Below are positions 10,026-26,438 of a stretch of 64,000 nucleotides of DNA, one piece after another. The translations under genes and the position numbers were made by a program. The notes beneath the pieces were generated by a model. The model ran no database searches. It was not told the origin of the DNA and worked only from the letters and a program-made list of their open reading frames with translations. This stretch comes from a virus, in IMG/VR virus record IMGVR_UViG_3300042867_001113; one strand, given 5' to 3'. The first letter of the stretch is position 1; each line of letters begins with the position of its first letter.

Positions 10026-10898
10026 TTACGGTCGGGTCTTCCGCAGGCAGAGTACGACCATCGGGTCGTCTCGCAAGGCGTGCGGCGACAACACTCGAAA
10101 GTCCGTCTCGCAGAGGATGTGGAAGGTCCACCCTCGTTGGAGGCAGTACGCCTCCGCCGCCTTGTACTTGGCAGAGTTGACTTCCGCTGACTGTTCAGCA
10201 TGCCACTGAGACTTGATCTCGTACAGGTCCGTGCCGAGCAGGTAGTCCGGCGTGTAGTGACGAGCGACCCCTGCGAAGACGTAGGGGATTCGCACGGGCT
10301 CCACGCGAACCGATAAGATGTCGGCACCTAAGTTCTCTAGGTGCTTGAGAAAAGAGTATTCATAAGAGCTGCGAAATCGCAGGTTTTGGTAGCGACCTTG
10401 GATGCCTCTTCCTCCTGCACCGTCGTACACTTTCCCGTACGCCGGGTTACCAGACCCTGAAACACGTTGAGCGATGCGATCCTTCAGAAAACCGGCGCGT
10501 GATCCGTAGCGCTCCTCGTATGAGCGGCCTTTGGTTCGCGCACTTGATCGCTTTCCTGAGTCGGCCTTCCTCGATGGAGTCCACGCGACCTGCTGCTTTG
10601 CACGGGATGCGTCGCTGTGGGTCTTTCCGAAGAAAGAGTTGTGCTCTCCACTCATATCGCGGCGCGTCTCCATCCCCTGTAGGAGTCGCTGACGTATCTC
10701 CGAGGTAGACATCGCGTCTGCCGTTCGTTGAGAAACTCGGTCCCGGTAACTTTGCGACGTCAAAGGGGCCGATGGATGCTCTCGGCGATAGTCGGCGACC
10801 GAGGTGGCGTGGGAGCGCAGGTGTGGGGATACAGCATGGACCCTCTGACCGCATATCAGACACGGTATCCTATCGTCAGAGAGATCCGAGGATTCCAT
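10026..10898 (-). CDS. Free-standing putative homing endonuclease: Zn finger + NUMOD3-like repeats + TnsA-N/PD-(D/E)xK nuclease
   Basis: CLICG..HLRSH; SGEHNSFFGKTHS and SGSGNPAYGK; FRSSYE...EP.RIPY...YTPDYL...YEIKS; AT-richer codons. Confidence 0.8.
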   Translation of the reverse strand: MESSDLSDDRIPCLICGQRVHAVSPHLRSHATSVADYRREHPSAPLTSQSYRDRVSQRTADAMSTSEIRQRLLQGMETRRDMSGEHNSFFGKTHSDASRAKQQVAWTPSRKADSGKRSSARTKGRSYEERYGSRAGFLKDRIAQRVSGSGNPAYGKVYDGAGGRGIQGRYQNLRFRSSYEYSFLKHLENLGADILSVRVEPVRIPYVFAGVARHYTPDYLLGTDLYEIKSQWHAEQSAEVNSAKYKAAEAYCLQRGWTFHILCETDFRVLSPHALRDDPMVVLCLRKTRP

Positions 10899-12952: not shown

Positions 12953-14449
12953 TCACAAATTCGTGACGCGCATCTGGCCGTAGTATTCCGGGCGAAGAAG
13001 CTTCTTCGCGTAGCGGGTACGCATCGCCTTGCGGAGCGAGAAGTCGTTCGGATCGAGGAAGGTCTGGGTGACCTGCAGGGGGATGTACGGGGCCCAGACG
13101 TATCCGGCGTCGAGGAAGCTGCCGCCCTTGAGGCCGATCAGCATCTGGTCGCGCTGGAAGAAGGGGTCTTCGTAGACCATCCACTTGTTCTGCAAGGTGC
13201 CGACCTTGTAGATGCCGAACTGACCCTGCGAGGACAGGGGGCGGGGCATGTCCATCGGGCCGTATGGGGACTCAGCGCCTGAGACGTAGGCCGCGCGGAA
13301 GTCACCGTGCGTGGTGAGCTGCGCGAGCAAGGCGCTCACGTCGGGGCTCGTCACGATGAAGTTCGCGGGCGCACGCAGGGTCTTCTTGTGGATCTGGTTC
13401 GAGACGGTCGAGATGACCGTGAGCATCGAACGCAGGTGGTCGAGTTCGCTGATGCCAGCCGGGGGCACGCGGTCGAACGAGCCAGTCGTCGACGTCGAGT
13501 TCTGGAAGAGGTCGTCGATGATCTCGCGATCGATTTCGAGGGCCATTTCCTGAGCGACGGCGCTGACGATCTCGGTCTCGGCGTCGATGCCGTGGAAGGC
13601 GCGGAGGTCTTCAGCGGCTTCGCTGGACCACAGAGCCTTGAGGCGGCGAGGCTGAGCTTCGACCGGAGCCTTCTTCACGTCGAGCTTCATCGACGGGATC
13701 TTGGTGTTCAGTTCGCCGTCGTAGACGTAGAACGCCTTGATCTGGTTGCCCAGACCGCACGCAACGGTGAACCGGAAGCCGGAGATGGCACCGTTCGCGT
13801 AGTTGATGGCACCCGAGAGCACGTTGCCAGTGAAGCCACCGGCACCGTCATCGGTCGCCTGCTGGACAACGGCACCCGTGGTGACGTTGAACTCGCGGAC
13901 GATGGTGGCGAAGCCATTCGAGGCGTTCAGCGGACGAACCGGGTTGAACGACAGGGTGGACGAGAGCGGAGCGCCAGCGCCGCCGAAGTCAGCGCCGTTG
14001 CCGGTGCCGAGGATCTCACCGTCGATCTTCTCCGACGTGTAGTTGCGATCGAAGTCGCGCGGGAAGACCTGACCACGCTGGGTCGGGGCCTTGTTGGTGT
14101 CGTAGACGTAGTCGAGGAAGAACACAGCGCCGACCGAGGCCGTCATCGGCTGCACGGACACGATGTCGTGGGCGATGAGGTTCGGGAACACGCGACGGAG
14201 GACGGGGAAGATGAACTTCGTGAACGAGCCGACGTTCACGAGGCGAGTCTCTTCTTCGAGGCTCTGGAGATGCTGCGACTCGTTCTCCATCAGCACGGCA
14301 GTGACGCCGAGGACGTAGCGATCACGCTCCGTTCGGTCGGGCATGCCTTCCAGCAAGTCCTTCCACTTGCGAACAAGGGCACCGACGTAGGTCTTGTCGG
14401 CGATCGTGCGGGTCGAACCTTCGAGAACCATGTTGCGAGCTTCCATCAC
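12953..14449 (-). CDS. Major capsid protein (T4 gp23 family)
   Basis: RRVFPNLIAHDIVSVQPMT; RRLKALWSSEAAEDLRAFHGIDAE; EIDREII; DAGYVWAPYIPL; MRTRY. Confidence 0.97.
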   Translation of the reverse strand: MMEARNMVLEGSTRTIADKTYVGALVRKWKDLLEGMPDRTERDRYVLGVTAVLMENESQHLQSLEEETRLVNVGSFTKFIFPVLRRVFPNLIAHDIVSVQPMTASVGAVFFLDYVYDTNKAPTQRGQVFPRDFDRNYTSEKIDGEILGTGNGADFGGAGAPLSSTLSFNPVRPLNASNGFATIVREFNVTTGAVVQQATDDGAGGFTGNVLSGAINYANGAISGFRFTVACGLGNQIKAFYVYDGELNTKIPSMKLDVKKAPVEAQPRRLKALWSSEAAEDLRAFHGIDAETEIVSAVAQEMALEIDREIIDDLFQNSTSTTGSFDRVPPAGISELDHLRSMLTVISTVSNQIHKKTLRAPANFIVTSPDVSALLAQLTTHGDFRAAYVSGAESPYGPMDMPRPLSSQGQFGIYKVGTLQNKWMVYEDPFFQRDQMLIGLKGGSFLDAGYVWAPYIPLQVTQTFLDPNDFSLRKAMRTRYAKKLLRPEYYGQMRVTNL

Positions 14450-14510: not shown

Positions 14511-16175
14511 TCAGCCTTTGATACCAGCCAAAGCGCGAACTCGATCGAGGCTGATTCCGAGACCCTGCCAGTTTTGGCCTTCGGCCATGGTCCGGCGGGT
14601 CCGGGGAGATTCGGTCTCTTCCGAGATTTCCGTGGGCGCGCGCTCGACGCCGCCGTTCATACGGCCACGGATGCGAGCACGAACCGACTGGAGGTCGTCC
14701 TCGTCACGCTCGACTTCGCGCTCGCTCTCCACGAGGGAGTCGACCGCTCGGCGGGAGGCCGGACGGGTGCTCTCCACGAGACCTCGGATCTTGGTCGCCT
14801 TCGGATGGTTGGCAAGGCGCTCCTCTGCATAGAGGCGCGTCTCCAGTTCCTTCGAGGCACGCTTGGCTTCAGCGAGGTCGTCTTCCAACTCCAAGCGGAG
14901 GGCCTTCTCGTTGGCCATCTTCTTTTCCATCGCAGCCAGCTTGGACTCGACAGCGTCGCGCTGCTTCCGCTCGACCTTCCGAGCTTCTGCGACTTCCTTG
15001 GCCTTGGATTCCTGTTCAGCTTTCTTTGCCTCGGTCTTGCGGCCCATCTCAGCCTTGACCTCGTTGACACGCTGCTTGAGCGCGTCCGAACTCTCAAAGC
15101 TCTTGAGGTCGCCGACAAGGGTTCGGATGGAGTCAGCGTCGGGATCGTTGGCAACCATCTTCTCAAGATAGAAGCAGTAGCCGACCTCTTTGGCCATCTC
15201 AGCGAGAGCCGTGTTCTCTGACTCCAGATCCTTCAGCTTGAGGTCGCGTTCCGCCAGCTGCTTCTGCAAGTCGCGAATTTCGACGTCCTTGACGCGAACG
15301 ACCTCAGCAGCATCCTCGGGGAGGAGATACGGACGGAGGACACCACGCAGAGCTTCCAGCACGGCTTTGGCCTTGCCGATCTCTGGGTCTTCCATCATCT
15401 CCTTCCGCAACTCATCGCGAACTGCGGCACGGACGGTCGAGAGGTTGTCGAGAATCGCCTTGGCGAAGTCGTCACGGACGTCGCGCGAGCTGGAACCCTG
15501 CTTGGCTCCCATCTCACCCTCGATGCGGCGGGCAAACTCTTGGGCCTTCGCCGCATCGCCTTCAAGGGGCGCTTTCTTGCTGACCATCTCAGCTTCGATG
15601 CGCCGAGCGAACTCAATCGCCTTCTCCTGTTCAGCATCAGCATCGAACTCCACACCCTCGAACAGGGAGCGGCTTTCGCCCATCACTGGGTAGGCGTCTT
15701 GGTCAGCCGGGTCTGCGACGAAGTCGAAGGTGACCAGCTTGTAGTCATCCTGCACGATGTCGTTCCCGCTCTCGTTGGTCTTGACGCTGCCGAAGCCACG
15801 GCTGGAAACGCCAACGGGGACGTTCGACTTGAGGAGCGCGAGAAGGTTCTTCCCCGCCTCGGTCGGCATGATCTCGGCCTCACCAATCACGAGCCCGTCC
15901 TTGACGGAGAGGTCCGTGATGATGTGCGAGACGCGGGACAGCTTGGTCTGACCGTCGCTGGGGTGATCGATCTCACCCATGACGCGGCGTTCCTTGAGCG
16001 CCTTGCCGAGCCGCTTCAGCTCCTTCTCCCAAACGCCTTTCGGGTAGACGCGCTTGTTCTCAGTGGCGATGCCGCACTTGGCAAACTCACCTCGAACTTT
16101 GACGCGACCACCTTCGCCTCCCTCGGCAAGAGAGAGGCGCACAATGGAAACGTCGCTCAGAAGTGGCTTGGTCAT
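14511..16175 (-). CDS. Prohead protease (T4 gp21 family) fused to coiled-coil scaffold domain
   Basis: NKRVYP, GEIDHP, VSHII, VGVSSRGFGS, LVTFDFVADP; followed by about 380 aa of charged coiled coil. Confidence 0.93.
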   Translation of the reverse strand: MTKPLLSDVSIVRLSLAEGGEGGRVKVRGEFAKCGIATENKRVYPKGVWEKELKRLGKALKERRVMGEIDHPSDGQTKLSRVSHIITDLSVKDGLVIGEAEIMPTEAGKNLLALLKSNVPVGVSSRGFGSVKTNESGNDIVQDDYKLVTFDFVADPADQDAYPVMGESRSLFEGVEFDADAEQEKAIEFARRIEAEMVSKKAPLEGDAAKAQEFARRIEGEMGAKQGSSSRDVRDDFAKAILDNLSTVRAAVRDELRKEMMEDPEIGKAKAVLEALRGVLRPYLLPEDAAEVVRVKDVEIRDLQKQLAERDLKLKDLESENTALAEMAKEVGYCFYLEKMVANDPDADSIRTLVGDLKSFESSDALKQRVNEVKAEMGRKTEAKKAEQESKAKEVAEARKVERKQRDAVESKLAAMEKKMANEKALRLELEDDLAEAKRASKELETRLYAEERLANHPKATKIRGLVESTRPASRRAVDSLVESEREVERDEDDLQSVRARIRGRMNGGVERAPTEISEETESPRTRRTMAEGQNWQGLGISLDRVRALAGIKG

Positions 16176-16176
16176 G

Positions 16177-16380
16177 TCAGTACCGTCTCCAGCGGAAGTT
16201 GCTTCGGAAGGGGGTCCGCGCCAGCTGGCCGGATTCCTTCTTCTTCACCTTCCGTGTTTTGCGTCGAAAGGGGTTCAGGTCTCGTTTTTCAGCACCGATC
16301 AGCTCACGTCTCCCGCTGGAGTACGAGGCGCGGCGATTCCGCCATGCCTCCTCCGTCGAGGACGAGTTCAGTCGTTTCCC
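16177..16380 (-). CDS. Putative -1 frameshift extension of the 16368-17042 protein (basic, about 65 aa)
   Basis: G GGA AAC at 16380-16374; -1 frame is open to TGA 16179-16177, 1 nt before protease ATG, and has no early start codon of its own. Confidence 0.6.
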   Translation of the reverse strand, partial: GKRLNSSSTEEAWRNRRASYSSGRRELIGAEKRDLNPFRRKTRKVKKKESGQLARTPFRSNFRWRRY

Positions 16381-17042
16381 GAAGTCTCTTCGACCTCTTC
16401 TTCGTCTTCGTTGTTGTCCTCGTAGAGGTCAACGGCGTCGAGAATGGTCTCCATCCCTTCGGCAAAGGCAGCAGCGACGTCCTCAGCGGACTCATCGAGC
16501 CGACCTTCGCTCATCGCGGTGGCGATGTCGGCGAAAGATTCGGCGATCTCGCCGAGCTGGCCCGCCAGACCGGCGAACATGCGCTCGTCGGCAGCCTCAT
16601 ACTCATCAGCCTTCACCCACTCGGTGAAGATGCCAGCGAGCTTGTCGGCGATGATGGCCGCGTTGGCGAACGACTTGAGGGTCTCGTTGGCGTCGACCGC
16701 TTCTTGGCGGGTGCCCTTCGAGATGGCCTTGCGCTTGACCATCGCTGCACGGCGCATTCCTTTGCTCGTGCTCGCTTTCTTTTCGCTCCTCTTCGCCGAA
16801 CGACGACCTTCAGCGGAACGCTTATACTTCTTGCCCGCCATCCGTTCTGCCGTGGACGTCTTCTGCTGCTTGACCTTCTTGCCGCCGCGCAGGGCGTAGC
16901 GGATGCGACCAGCCTCGTCGAGCACCTCTTCTTCTTCCTCCTTCGGAGCTGAAGCCGGAGCCGAAGCCTGAACAGACTCACGGATGAGCCCGATCTTGCG
17001 GAAGTCTTCTTCAAGGGTGGTGACAACGATCGGGTTTCGCAT
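16368..17042 (-). CDS. Putative prohead core protein (gp67/gp68-like position)
   Basis: Between portal and protease; alternating acidic and K/R-rich blocks, several LxE motifs. Confidence 0.65.
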   Translation of the reverse strand: MRNPIVVTTLEEDFRKIGLIRESVQASAPASAPKEEEEEVLDEAGRIRYALRGGKKVKQQKTSTAERMAGKKYKRSAEGRRSAKRSEKKASTSKGMRRAAMVKRKAISKGTRQEAVDANETLKSFANAAIIADKLAGIFTEWVKADEYEAADERMFAGLAGQLGEIAESFADIATAMSEGRLDESAEDVAAAFAEGMETILDAVDLYEDNNEDEEEVEETSGND

Positions 17043-18078: not shown

Positions 18079-19875
18079 TCAGCGCGCCCCTCGGGCGTTG
18101 AGATCTCGGAGCAGACCGCCAATTTCGCGCAAGCGCAACTCCAAGCCTCGGTCGGACTTCAGGATGGCGTCGAGCTTGGCGTCCATACGTTTCGAGTCCT
18201 TCGGGTTGTAGCCCTCGGTCAGCTCTCGTTCGGAGAAGCCACTGTGCGTCGGGATCCCGCGACGACGAGCCGCGTCACGCGAGCTTGTAAGAGCCTTCAG
18301 CACTCGGTTCGGCTGGTGAGCCTCTGCTGGAGGACCATACGGGCCCTCTTCGGGGGGCGCTTCGCCCGGAGGAGCCTCCATCGGGGGAGGCGCGGGCGAT
18401 ACGATGTTCTGCGCAGCTGCTTGGTTTTCAGCGTCCTCAGCTGACTCCCCACTGCGCTGCTTCTTGATGAGGGCAATCTCGTCTTCGGACAAGCCAAAGA
18501 CGTTCGAGAGGATCCACTGTAGCGAGACAAAGTCGCGCATGCGTGCCGCAAGGTCCGCTTTGGCCGTTCGGACTTCCATCTGAGCCAGCTCAAAAATGGC
18601 CGACGGCACCGTCATGTTGATGTCGTAGTCGACAGCGTAGGGGTCGAGGCCCAGCGCCGACAAGTGGACACGGGCGACCTTCCGGAGTCCATTCTTCAGC
18701 TCCCGCTGGATACGCAGAACGGTCCGAGCAAAGCGGACGTCCTCACTGGACAGGACCGCCCGAGCTACGCCGGATTCCTGCCCGAGGTACGCCTTTGGCA
18801 CCTTGATGGCCGAAAACAGCTTGTCTCGGAAGTACTCGATGTCGTCCATTGCCTGCCACTGCGGAGCGCCGAGGGTCTCGATGCGAGTGGAGTCCACCCC
18901 CTTCCGGGTGGGCACGAAGAAGTCCTCGTCCTGCGACAGAGCGTCGAACTTCAGATTCAGCTTGCCGGTGCCCGGGTCCACGAACCGCTTCTTCCGGAAG
19001 TTCTGGCGGACCCGGTTCACGAACGCGAGGGCCTCTTGGGGAGGAAGGTCGCCGACGTCGACATAGAAGGCGAACCGCTCAGGGGCCCGCTGGAGGCGGT
19101 ACACGAGGGCCGCGTCTTCCAGCAGCATGAGACGCTTCCAGATCCACCGGGCGGCTTCCAAGGCACTGTGGCCGTAGACCGACCGGCGTTCCTTCCCGCG
19201 CAGGCGGAAATGGACCACCTCCCAGCTCTCAAACGCAGCCACTGGCTGACTCGTGGGGTCCGGGCTCACCGACATGTCGAACTTCGCAGACAGAGACCGC
19301 TGGAAGTCGTTGTTGGTGAAGTCGAAGCGCCCCTTGAAGTCCTGCATGAAGCCGATCAGGTCACCCTTCGGCGTCTCAAGGCGTCGGACCGTCGGCGGAG
19401 GCAAGTAGTTGATGCCTCGCACGCCGTCAGCATTGACGAGAAGCTCCTCGTAGTCGTTCCCGTATTTGCAGAGGGTGCGTGCAATTTCCCAGATCTCTTC
19501 GTCCATGCGAAGTGTTCGATTGAACAAGTCATCGAGGTTGTTCTGAAGCGTTTTGTCGGACGACGTGATCCAGATGGTCCGGTGCAGCACGGAGTCAGGT
19601 TGGGTCGCATCGTCCGCGAGGATGTCGAGGGCAGTGGCGATCTCGCCGTAGTCGTCCATCTCCTCGTAGTCCGCGAACCGAAGCAAGAGGTCAGTGTCGA
19701 GGCGAAGATAGTCGGTGAGGGCGTCGTAGCCCACGCCCGACATCAGGTCGATGGCTGTGGCGTCGCCACCGCCCAACTCGCCCGTCGCACCCTTCGCGAG
19801 CTGAGTGTTCGCGTGGTCCTTGTCGCGGCTGAACGCTGCGGAAATTCGCTTGGCGACGTTGTCGGCGAATCCCAT
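18079..19875 (-). CDS. Portal protein (T4 gp20 family)
   Basis: LEDAALVYRLQRAPERFAFYVDVGDLP; EDFF.P.R; DDIEYFRDKLFSAIKVPK. Confidence 0.96.
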   Translation of the reverse strand: MGFADNVAKRISAAFSRDKDHANTQLAKGATGELGGGDATAIDLMSGVGYDALTDYLRLDTDLLLRFADYEEMDDYGEIATALDILADDATQPDSVLHRTIWITSSDKTLQNNLDDLFNRTLRMDEEIWEIARTLCKYGNDYEELLVNADGVRGINYLPPPTVRRLETPKGDLIGFMQDFKGRFDFTNNDFQRSLSAKFDMSVSPDPTSQPVAAFESWEVVHFRLRGKERRSVYGHSALEAARWIWKRLMLLEDAALVYRLQRAPERFAFYVDVGDLPPQEALAFVNRVRQNFRKKRFVDPGTGKLNLKFDALSQDEDFFVPTRKGVDSTRIETLGAPQWQAMDDIEYFRDKLFSAIKVPKAYLGQESGVARAVLSSEDVRFARTVLRIQRELKNGLRKVARVHLSALGLDPYAVDYDINMTVPSAIFELAQMEVRTAKADLAARMRDFVSLQWILSNVFGLSEDEIALIKKQRSGESAEDAENQAAAQNIVSPAPPPMEAPPGEAPPEEGPYGPPAEAHQPNRVLKALTSSRDAARRRGIPTHSGFSERELTEGYNPKDSKRMDAKLDAILKSDRGLELRLREIGGLLRDLNARGAR

Positions 19876-23099: not shown

Positions 23100-24938
23100 C
23101 TATTTGCTTGCCCACGATTGGCCCCCGCCGACTTCCGCGCGGGTTGGAACGGACGGGAGCATTGGGGCGATGCCTTCGATCATACCGTCGTGCAGCTCCT
23201 GCCGAACGTGAATTTCCAGCTCAGGATCCTCGTCGTGTTCGCAGACAATCTCGTCGTGGACCATATGGACCGGCGCGCACTTCGCTCCCTTGCCGAGAAG
23301 GGGCGTTCGGCCCGCGAGCTTCTTCAGACGGTCGTAGACGTTGCGGATGGCGACCTTGAGGCCGTCGGCCCCAGTGCCTTGGATGGGGCTGTTGTAGAAC
23401 TCGTTGTGCGCCTTCTCATCCTTGATGATGCGTCGGCGACCCCAAGCCGTCCGGGTCTCGCGCTGACGCTTCCCTGAGTCCATCGCCAGCCGATGCCACG
23501 AGTCGATCCCCGCATATGCCTCGAAGAAGCGTCGGCGGAACGTGCGGGCTTGGTTCTCCGTGAACGACACCCCGTAGCCCTGCTTCGCGTACATCACGAG
23601 GCGCGCGGCCTGCATCCCGTAGATGAAGCCGAAGTTGACCGGCTTGGCCTGCTGGCGTTCTGCCTTCACGATCTCCGACTCAGGCTTGCCGGTCACGAGT
23701 GACGCCGTCGCGTAGTGAGCATCGCGGTCGTCTCGGAACACCTTGATGAGCACCGGATCCTTGGAGATCTCGGCAACTATTCGCATCTCGATGTTGCTCC
23801 AATCGCAGATGGCCAAGGTTCTACCGGGCTCGGCCCTGAAGCAGTCTCGAAAGGCACCCCCGCGAGGTACCTGCTGAAGGTTCGGTCCTCGGTTCGCGTA
23901 CCGTCCGGTGTCGGTGAACGGAAAGTACGACGAGTGGATGCGCCCCGAAATCGGGTGGATGTTCTTCAGGTACTCCTCGCCGAACGCCTTCACCGACTGC
24001 GCATACCCTCGGTACTCGATGAACTCCTTGAGGATGGGCCAGCGGTCAGCCTCCATCGCCAGCGTCATCTCCTTGGTGTCCATGAGGGGGACCGTCTTTG
24101 TCAGCCCGGTCTCCGGGTCTTTCCACTTCTGCTTGACACCCAGCATGCAGAGTGACTTGAGAATCTGATCGGGAGAGTCGAGGTTGAAGCTGGCAGGTCC
24201 GAAGAGGCCCAGCTGGTTCGAGGGGTTCGGCAGCTTGGACAGCAGGCTTGCCCGCAGCCGCTCCAGCTGAACCCGGTCCGACGCCGTTCGCGTGAGCCAC
24301 ATATCTTTGTTGAGGAAGAACCCGTTCAGTTCCATGCACGCTTCGGGGAGAACCGCGTTGAACTCCAGCTGCGCGATCTTCACCAGACGCGCATCGACGA
24401 TCTTCTTCTTGAGGACGTCGCGGAGCCGGGGAAGCTTGTCGATGTCGTCTGCGGCGTAGTCGAGCTGCCGCTGTGTCAGCGTCCCATCCCAGTCGGAACC
24501 GCCGAGGTCTTCGACCGTCGCGGCTTCGCCCAGCTCGCGCTTGTAGAGGCTCCACAGGTCATGCTTTAGCCCGGGGAGGCCCGCGTAGATGATGCTCGAC
24601 GCGCGGAAGGTGTCGAACAGCTTCCCAATCTCCAGATCGAAGTGCCAGAGCAGCCACTTCTGGTCGAACTTCATGTTCTGACCGACCGTAACGCCCTTGG
24701 TCCGCCTGAAGGCGTCCACAACGGGCCCCAGCGTCTTCGTCTTGTAGAGGTCGATGATGTAGAGGCCCTGCCCGGTGTTGACCGAGCAAAGGCGCGGACG
24801 GCCCGTCAGAGGGTCGAAGCTGCCGCCACCCCCGATCTTCGCCGTCTCAAGGTCGAGCCCGATGACATCGGCACTCTCAATTTCACGAGCAATAGCGGCG
24901 AGCAAATGCTCATCAGTGACGACGGTGTACGGGCGCAA
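23100..24938 (-). CDS. polA: DNA polymerase family A (3'-5' exonuclease + polymerase)
   Basis: Exo I DLET, QNMKFD, YAADD; motif A DWSNIEMR, motif B RQQAKPVNFGFIYG, motif C VHDE. Confidence 0.96.
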   Translation of the reverse strand: MRPYTVVTDEHLLAAIAREIESADVIGLDLETAKIGGGGSFDPLTGRPRLCSVNTGQGLYIIDLYKTKTLGPVVDAFRRTKGVTVGQNMKFDQKWLLWHFDLEIGKLFDTFRASSIIYAGLPGLKHDLWSLYKRELGEAATVEDLGGSDWDGTLTQRQLDYAADDIDKLPRLRDVLKKKIVDARLVKIAQLEFNAVLPEACMELNGFFLNKDMWLTRTASDRVQLERLRASLLSKLPNPSNQLGLFGPASFNLDSPDQILKSLCMLGVKQKWKDPETGLTKTVPLMDTKEMTLAMEADRWPILKEFIEYRGYAQSVKAFGEEYLKNIHPISGRIHSSYFPFTDTGRYANRGPNLQQVPRGGAFRDCFRAEPGRTLAICDWSNIEMRIVAEISKDPVLIKVFRDDRDAHYATASLVTGKPESEIVKAERQQAKPVNFGFIYGMQAARLVMYAKQGYGVSFTENQARTFRRRFFEAYAGIDSWHRLAMDSGKRQRETRTAWGRRRIIKDEKAHNEFYNSPIQGTGADGLKVAIRNVYDRLKKLAGRTPLLGKGAKCAPVHMVHDEIVCEHDEDPELEIHVRQELHDGMIEGIAPMLPSVPTRAEVGGGQSWASK

Positions 24939-24995: not shown

Positions 24996-26438
24996 TTATC
25001 CCTGCTTTGACTCAGGGACAGCATCGATACCCGGGTCTTCAGTTCCTTCACCCGGCTTGAACGTCGGAGCCGTCTTTGCCAGCTGTTCAGCCTCCCACTT
25101 GGTCGCTGCAGCGTAGAGCGCGAGTAGATCCTCGGCGGTCATCGGCTTCTTCATCGACTCCTCCATCCAGTTCGGGTTGCCGACCGTGTCGTCCCCCGCC
25201 TGAGCAAACATCTGCTTCGGAGCAGTCGGATCCGTCACGTCAACAACAATAGCCGATGAGGCTTCAGGGGCCAGTTCAGCGAACGACGCAGGCAGCTTGA
25301 TGCGGGCGGCTGGGAAGATTTCCGGTTTCACGAAGCGTCCGAAGCGCACCCCTCGGTCTTCGGCCCTGATCCGGACCGCATCCAAGCCTGTCATCTCATC
25401 GGTGTCGCGAACATGGGCGAGAACGAGCTTGACGTCGTAGCCCTTCGATCGAGCCTCCTTGATGACCCCTTTGTAGTAGGCCGTCGACGTCCCCACGCCG
25501 TCAAGCAGGAAGGGGTAGTACTCCCCGGGGCTATCAGGGTCTTCCGACATCGCGAGGTCAATGGCAGTGTCGTTGAGGTTCGATACCTCGCTGTGCGTGA
25601 TGATGGCACCGTTGCGGGACTTCGTCGCCACCGCCGCTTGGTACTCCGGCAGCTTGGTGCGGTGCGCGTCTGCGTCGAGCACGGCCAGTTCGTCAGGGTT
25701 CTCCGCGAGGTAGCGCGCCAACGTGCTCTTTCCGCTGGCAGGGAGGCCCATCGTGATGATGGCTATAGGATTCCGCACACGCCTCTTCCCTTGGAAGATG
25801 CCGTCCAGAATCGTCTTGTGCAGACGCTGGCGCTCTGAAGTCAGGACTCCGTCCGGCGTGGTGTGCGCCTTGAGCGTGTCCGTCGGCAGGTCGGGGTTCG
25901 CGTCAGCCCACTCGGCGCCGCTGGTGAGGTGGAACCACGATCCGTTCGGCATCTTCTTGAACCAAGCGTCCCGCGAGGCCCAGTAGTGAACCGTCCCGAC
26001 AGACGCTTCCTGTCCTCGGGCTTCAAGGACAGCAAGGAATCGGTCGACGTCTTCGGTCTTCTTTGCAGGGTCGTACCTATCCTCGTACCACTCAGGAACA
26101 ACCGTCTGGTGCAGCAGCAGGTACACGTCCCCAGCAGTCTGCACGGAGGGTGCGATCTCCGACGGGACGTCAAACCAGTCCGCGTTCTCGCGGACGTGCT
26201 TCGGGCTGATCGGCCTGAACCGGACCTCATCTCCCGTGTACTCCCACCGAGCACGGACAACGCCGCCACCCTCGTCCACCATGTTTGACAGCTGCATCTC
26301 GAACACAGGCTTCGGAAGATCGGGGTGTGTGTAGAAGACCCAGCGTCCGTCCTCCAGCATCGCAGGAGCGCGAAATAGCGAACCATCAATGTCCGGATTG
26401 GCGCTCTCGACGCCGTAGACGCCTGTAAAACTCAGCAC
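24996..26438 (-). CDS. Protein with zeta-toxin-like P-loop kinase domain
   Basis: ITMGLPASGKST, VLDADAHRTKLPEY, THSE, LLDG, GYDV.L, R..R GR.V pattern. Confidence 0.8.
   Translation of the reverse strand: MLSFTGVYGVESANPDIDGSLFRAPAMLEDGRWVFYTHPDLPKPVFEMQLSNMVDEGGGVVRARWEYTGDEVRFRPISPKHVRENADWFDVPSEIAPSVQTAGDVYLLLHQTVVPEWYEDRYDPAKKTEDVDRFLAVLEARGQEASVGTVHYWASRDAWFKKMPNGSWFHLTSGAEWADANPDLPTDTLKAHTTPDGVLTSERQRLHKTILDGIFQGKRRVRNPIAIITMGLPASGKSTLARYLAENPDELAVLDADAHRTKLPEYQAAVATKSRNGAIITHSEVSNLNDTAIDLAMSEDPDSPGEYYPFLLDGVGTSTAYYKGVIKEARSKGYDVKLVLAHVRDTDEMTGLDAVRIRAEDRGVRFGRFVKPEIFPAARIKLPASFAELAPEASSAIVVDVTDPTAPKQMFAQAGDDTVGNPNWMEESMKKPMTAEDLLALYAAATKWEAEQLAKTAPTFKPGEGTEDPGIDAVPESKQG

Follow-up and report, generated by a model that had tools for sequence, protein, structure and literature searches.

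A probable programmed -1 ribosomal frameshift at the end of a putative prohead core gene in an uncultured virus with a T4-type head module

In the virus record IMGVR_UViG_3300042867_001113 of IMG/VR, analysed here as a stretch of 64,000 nucleotides (the window), a minus-strand gene for a 224-aa protein, located between the portal and prohead protease genes, very probably carries a programmed -1 ribosomal frameshift near its end, which is the best reading of the site on the evidence of sequence comparison. An earlier inspection, made from the letters of this DNA without database searches (hereafter the sequence-only reading), had proposed such a shift. The proposal is supported by a slippery heptamer and a -1 ORF that are conserved in close as well as distant relatives, by purifying selection on the -1 frame, and by the finding that the close clade has no conserved separate start for the downstream ORF.

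According to the proposed mechanism, most ribosomes on the 224-aa gene would stop at the TGA at 16370-16368, and a fraction would slip back by one base on the heptamer G GGA AAC (16380-16374), with tRNA-Gly re-pairing from GGA to GGG and tRNA-Asn from AAC to AAA. A predicted stem-loop, located 7-9 nt downstream, probably helps this slip. The shifted ribosomes would then read 65 further codons in the -1 frame to give a 288-aa product, whose acidic C-terminus would be extended by a conserved basic module ending at the start codon of the protease-scaffold gene; both the 224-aa and the 288-aa forms would be made. We infer the slippage, its rate and the helper role of the hairpin from sequence.

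The shift site within a T4-type head module

The 0-frame gene (224 aa; 17042..16368, minus strand, from the ORF list) ends with TCG GGA AAC GAC TGA. The heptamer G GGA AAC lies at 16380-16374 (minus strand) in the X XXY YYZ phase of this ORF, exactly where the sequence-only reading had placed it, and only one codon, GAC (16373-16371), stands between it and the 0-frame stop TGA (16370-16368). In the -1 frame, 67 conceptual codons from 16380 onward are uninterrupted before a TGA is reached (16177..16380, minus strand), and 65 residues would be added; the stop codon (16179-16177) is followed by C16176 and then by the protease ATG at 16175, so that the frame ends 1 nt before this ATG, again as described earlier. 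The first canonical start in the -1 frame (ATG, GTG and TTG being counted) is a GTG at codon 45, in line with the earlier remark that no early start codon is present. The tail was also rightly called strongly basic, since its translation contains 22 K/R against 6 D/E residues, and its net charge is about +16. The GC3 value of the -1 frame (0.73) is similar to that of the neighbouring genes in the window, and among the Gly codons of the head genes, the GGA found in the heptamer is the least used (7%). One detail of the earlier proposal had to be changed: in tandem slippage, GGA and AAC have already been decoded when the ribosome slips, so that the junction is S-G-N-R-L instead of G-K-R-L, and the conceptual product is 288 aa long. 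The chance that a 63-codon frame is open at 61% GC was estimated at p ~0.15, and that of an open frame combined with an in-phase heptamer at ~1e-4 for one gene.

The minus-strand neighbours constitute a T4-type head module, consisting of a Portal_T4 portal gene (19875..18079), a gene for a 306-aa protein with no assigned function, the 224-aa gene, the S77 protease gene, and a gene for a Gp23-type major capsid protein (14449..12953), the portal and capsid genes being assigned by Pfam/PHROGs. The position of the 224-aa gene between the portal and prohead protease genes is thus that of the T4 core genes. The protease (554 aa; 14511..16175, minus strand; Pfam PF03420, 3.4e-17; phrog_207) combines a Peptidase_S77 domain with a long, scaffold-like C-terminal part of ~350 aa (total length in relatives, 500-589 aa), whereas gp21 and gp22 are separate in T4 and cyanophages. 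It also contains a tandem EFARRIE(A/G)EM repeat and, near residue 222, an internal ATG (15512) behind GAGGG, which could yield a separately initiated scaffold. The closest cultured protease domains, those of T4-like cyanophages, show 35-39% identity. Among 50,697 cultured phage records, BLAST found nothing similar to the region, to the 224-aa protein or to any of three tail-family members used as queries.

The window also encodes a tail sheath protein and, at 23100-24938 (minus strand), a DNA polymerase of family A that includes a 3'-5' exonuclease domain. With such a polymerase, the phage is no relative of T4 as far as replication is concerned, and it joins a T4-type head with a non-T4 replication module. 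Other features of the window are a 480-aa protein with a Zeta_toxin/AAA_33 kinase-like domain (24996-26438, minus strand) and, between the capsid and sheath genes, a gene with NUMOD3 and TnsA-like endonuclease matches (10026-10898, minus strand), which is a probable homing endonuclease gene. No tRNA genes were found in the window.

Pfam and PHROGs gave no match for either the 224-aa protein or the tail. From its N-terminus, the 224-aa protein consists of a conserved motif, a helical stretch that is basic, a bundle of three helices and an acidic tail. Its AF2 model (pLDDT 78.8) is all-alpha: the motif forms a short helix, followed by a disordered linker and the basic helices; the three-helix bundle (residues 118-214) is predicted with confidence, and the acidic tail is disordered; a fold search of this model against BFVD and PDB returned generic helical bundles only, none at E <= 0.001. 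Homologues of the upstream gene in 27 aligned relatives have the N-terminal motif and the helical core in common. The motif, R-H-P-V-V-I-T-S-L-E-E-D-F-R-K-I-G-L-I/L-x-E, is the best conserved part of the protein; in the window it covers residues 1-22 (16977..17042, minus strand) and ends in I-R-E, and across the 27 relatives E11, E12, D13 and G18 never vary, and I17 and L19 hardly do. With its T4-type (L/I)xE protease site, this motif looks like a capsid-targeting propeptide and is, by analogy with T4 core proteins (PMC9958956), a candidate for one; it hints that the protein may enter the prohead and be cut by the prohead protease. The tail of the window contains no canonical T4-type (L/I)xE site, as judged by eye on the translation. 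The earlier designation of this gene as a prohead core gene is backed in part, by gene order, the conserved N-terminal motif and the all-helical model, and not by homology to T4 gp67 or gp68 (see below). The 224-aa protein would be a prohead core component loaded via its N-terminal motif, and the basic tail may bind a partner, either protein or DNA, inside the prohead.

Conservation of the heptamer, the -1 frame and the downstream structure

Ten IMG/VR contigs (L001-L010) make up the set of close relatives, in which the upstream gene shows 62-80% identity and the proteases are 97-99% identical. GGGAAAC is unchanged in 10/10 of them; the codons before it differ (ACT/ACC TCG, CAG CCG, GAG TCG), and the acidic tail contains indels. 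The -1 ORF is 67 codons long in all ten and aligns without gaps. Variable columns number 19, 11 and 37 at -1-frame codon positions 1, 2 and 3, and the Nei-Gojobori dN/dS is 0.13-0.34 in the -1 frame, compared with 0.8-7 in the other two frames, indicating purifying selection on the former. Codons 10-26 of the -1 frame, which lie upstream of every ATG, GTG or TTG in any close relative, have a pN/pS of 0.15, and the five-codon linker just past the shift site varies freely (pN/pS 1.2). No ATG, GTG or TTG in the -1 ORF is conserved among the close relatives. Furthermore, the -1 frame of L005 is closed by a TGA four codons upstream of the heptamer, and the frame change is therefore confined to ~25 nt.

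More distant relatives were sought with phmmer, using the 67-aa tail against 1.84 billion representative proteins. The 20 matching proteins include 18 ORF calls of 37-135 aa, most of which are 56-93 aa long; these 18 have in common the motif WRxRRTAYSSGR..E.IG and the C-terminal motif TPF.S.FRW.R., with TPFRSNFRWRRY in the tail of the window. No long head protein bearing the module as an in-frame C-terminal domain was found among the 1.84 billion representatives, and a search of the ESM Atlas gave no usable match. A profile scan of IMG/VR detected 80 loci, and in 80/80 the module is directly upstream of an S77 protease gene. When 83 loci were grouped into 45 clusters, the module was in the -1 frame of the upstream ORF in 42/45; a start next to the N-terminal motif of the upstream protein was assigned automatically in 24/45 cluster representatives, and several others carry a variant motif. 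Although the distant upstream bodies share just 24% identity with the query, or can be aligned with it at the N-terminus only, the module is still in the -1 frame. The tail peptide is 38-79% identical in relatives whose DNA can no longer be aligned. An AF2 model of the tail, built on a 55-sequence alignment, is mostly coil (pLDDT 65, pTM 0.22), as expected for a peptide that would fold on a partner.

A canonical in-phase X XXY YYZ heptamer is present in the overlap in 30/45 clusters. GGGAAAC is the commonest form, with GGGAAAA, GGGAAAG, AAAAAAA, GGGTTTT and CCCTTTC also occurring, and AAAAAAC in L012. The -1 frame opens exactly at the heptamer in L041, L050, L074 and L076, and one codon before it in L079. 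Within the bodies of the homologous genes, only five in-phase heptamers were counted in 10,080 codons. On the other hand, a heptamer exactly 7 or 10 nt before the stop was found in 19/38 scored clusters against 0.04 expected, a comparison whose binomial P is inflated by shared ancestry. That the identity of the heptamer changes on fully diverged flanks nevertheless shows that selection maintains it.

A stable stem-loop is predicted downstream of the heptamer at 16366-16305 (minus strand; MFE -35.1 kcal/mol, z -3.45), in which CGUCCUCG would pair with CGGG.AGACG, and GGAGGAGGC (16354-16346) with GCCUC...CUCC. Analogous stem-loops are predicted in L007, L008 and L009. Across 20 clusters, the 70 nt past the heptamer have a mean z of -2.2, compared with -0.37 for windows taken from the protease gene as a control (Mann-Whitney p = 5e-4), and the stems mostly begin at the 8th nt after the heptamer. 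Covariation within the close clade is uninformative in that 92.8% of cells pair, with one compensatory pair, and shuffles reach the observed values. On these folding predictions, the downstream stem-loop is plausible. The structure initially put forward, a small CTCGTCCTC/GGAGGAGG hairpin or a pseudoknot, is not kept in L007-L009 and gives way to the larger predicted stem-loop, to which the bases of this hairpin belong. The GGAGGAGG motif itself is a Glu-Glu-Ala-Trp coding sequence and one stem arm. Together with the ATG that follows it (16343-16354, minus strand), it also opens a 13-codon mini-ORF in the +1 frame; this candidate was set aside, as it is not conserved (in L007, the ATG is replaced by GTG and the ORF is 2 codons long).

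Alternative readings and variants of the layout

The alternative that survives best, although we consider it distinctly improbable, is that the -1 ORF is a separate small gene, initiated or re-initiated at a non-canonical codon such as the CUG in CUGA, with a product that stays unfused. The -1 codon overlapping the stop is CUG or AUA at many loci, and CUG (in CUGA) in the window; however, it is GUA, which is not near-cognate, at some loci, and no Shine-Dalgarno motif precedes the CUG in the window. A separate gene would also leave two features unaccounted for, namely the in-phase heptamer 7-10 nt before the stop in the 19/38 clusters and the invariant rare GGA codon. Points in its favour come from loci with a free-standing module that has its own ATG or GTG (L061/L064, L101, L102, L105 and L109), sometimes overlapping the upstream stop; counted by cluster, there are four of these (L061, L101, L105 and L109), two of which show such an overlap. 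L026 and L028 likewise have an ATG just before the conserved motif, but they also possess in-phase G GGA AAG and G GGA AAA heptamers, with the -1 frame open through to the module. Since some lineages carry a free-standing module, the module can therefore act unfused and fusion is not strictly required. Judged from the sequences across the family, frameshift fusion is the commonest, not the sole, way of expressing the module.

Clusters lacking the canonical heptamer show a second type of site. In 7 of these clusters, an in-phase C CCU is followed by ACC, UCC, UCU or AUC, and an in-phase C CCU is present in 8/12 heptamer-less clusters against 0.9 expected, with one of the eight resembling chance. 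These loci (L051, L055, L057, L063, L068, L084, L087 and L096) have their junctions ~7-52 nt before the 0-frame stop, and the sites read P-Y or P-F in the -1 frame, which suggests a P-site-only -1 slip of tRNA-Pro. In three further loci (L069, L073 and L017), the module is read in +1 relative to the upstream ORF, which could mean that ribosomes shift by +1 there, that assembly introduced an indel or that the wrong ORF was chosen; in L017 (5306-5515), CCC TTT C and a G6 run occur near the junction. As a separate observation, the called portal of L028 (L028:1-697) is 1387 aa long with Intein_splicing and LAGLIDADG matches, and therefore carries an intein.

Three other explanations fare worse still. 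One is a broken or mis-assembled gene, in which a once in-frame tail was split by a 1-nt indel or an assembly error. The layout of a single window would fit a mutation and a programmed shift alike, but the same frame relation recurs with different nucleotide sequences in 80 metagenome contigs, which are independent and come from many samples, searches of the relatives and of the representative proteins revealed no in-frame version, and the -1 part is under purifying selection; we hence give this explanation hardly any credence. Scarcely more can be said for the view that these 190 nt serve the protease gene as a leader that is not translated, or as an RNA element, and that the frame is open by accident. 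The predicted stable stem-loop would suit it, as would the estimate that ~15% of frames of this length are open by chance at this GC content, but the substitutions are codon-periodic, dN/dS is low in one frame only, and the peptide remains 38-79% identical where the DNA no longer aligns. Finally, transcriptional slippage, in which RNA polymerase rather than the ribosome changes frame, is very hard to credit: A-runs (AAAAAAA, AAAAAAC) occur in two clusters, but the site of the window consists of a run of three G and one of three A, and the conserved phase of the heptamer is relevant to ribosomes alone. Runs of this length are too short for known transcriptional slippage.

If the programmed -1 frameshift is accepted, a question raised is whether it also sets the supply of the downstream protease. 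In ~35/44 clusters, the -1 frame terminates on or right beside the start codon of the protease (-4 to +4 nt; TGATG, ATGA, TGAnATG), and a Shine-Dalgarno-like motif is absent in about half of those ~35 clusters. Such an arrangement, along with the missing Shine-Dalgarno-like motifs, suggests that translation of the protease may be coupled to the shifted ribosomes; ribosomes ending at the 0-frame stop are released 190 nt upstream of the protease start. The frameshift might thus act as a dosing valve, with full-length protease arising mainly from shifted, re-initiating ribosomes, an idea that we hold to be possible but rather doubtful. If it were true, the protease dose would be tied to the frameshift rate, and the G GGA AAN tandem slip, the C CCU P-site slip and the separate coupled gene would be three interchangeable solutions.

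Novelty and relation to known systems

The mechanism proposed here is textbook, and what is new is the gene family and its position; searching the literature turned up no report that a prohead core gene, or the gene for gp67 or gp68, is frameshifted. The module has been missed by gene callers, and public protein sets show only orphan ORFs of 56-93 aa; annotation therefore goes wrong for a conserved component of the head in a widespread lineage of uncultured phages with T4-type heads. With the frameshift, a head-core gene would join the short list of phage genes with conserved recoding. The family also offers a natural series of sites in one homologous context (G GGA AAC/A/G, A AAA AAN, C CCU UUC and C CCU NNC), which would be useful for studying slipperiness in high-GC hosts. 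A point against the frameshift is that X XXA AAC sites shift poorly in E. coli. Moreover, a fixed ratio of the short acidic form to the long acidic-plus-basic form would hint that the stoichiometry of the two forms matters when the prohead core is built or emptied.

The E. coli dnaX gene (tau/gamma) uses a bacterial-type tandem slip with a 3' stem-loop and an upstream Shine-Dalgarno-like stimulator. The tandem slip and 3' stem-loop proposed here are of the same type; however, the shift shortens the protein in dnaX and would lengthen it here, and the upstream GAGG motifs of the present gene are an unavoidable by-product of Glu/Asp codons.

In terms of gene position, the closest counterparts are the T4 core genes. 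T4 gp67, gp68 and the protease are core components present in ~340, 240 and 55 copies, and gp67 and gp68 are degraded by the protease (PMC9958956). Their genes lie between portal gene 20 and protease gene 21, like the gene studied here, and the acidic end of gp67 and the basic tail of gp68, beside the start of gene 21, resemble the acidic tail and the basic module of the window. In T4, however, these are two separate genes without a frameshift. Homology was not found: gp68 was rejected as a homologue (hhalign probability 0.15%, BLASTP E = 1.1), as was gp67, which was compared by eye, and a small acidic ORF upstream of S-PM2 gp21 is unrelated to the basic module.

Two phage frameshifts are comparable in outcome. 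The capsid protein gene 10A/10B of T7 (mentioned in PMC5592923) also undergoes a -1 shift near the end of a head gene that gives some molecules a short C-terminal extension; there, it is the major capsid protein that is extended, whereas here it would be the product of an accessory gene at the core position, no part of which is better conserved than the extension. The tail assembly chaperone G/GT of lambda arises from a -1 slip on G GGA AAG (PMC3296357) and has conserved counterparts in other tailed phages. The likeness to the present site lies in a heptamer G GGA AAN placed towards the end of a structural gene, a fixed minority of extended protein, which in our case is predicted, and a layout that outlasts the sequence. 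In contrast, the lambda site belongs to the tail module and the present one to the head module, between the portal and protease genes rather than between the tail tube and tape measure genes as in a tail assembly chaperone pair; the proteins are unrelated, and the module added here is also free-standing in some lineages.
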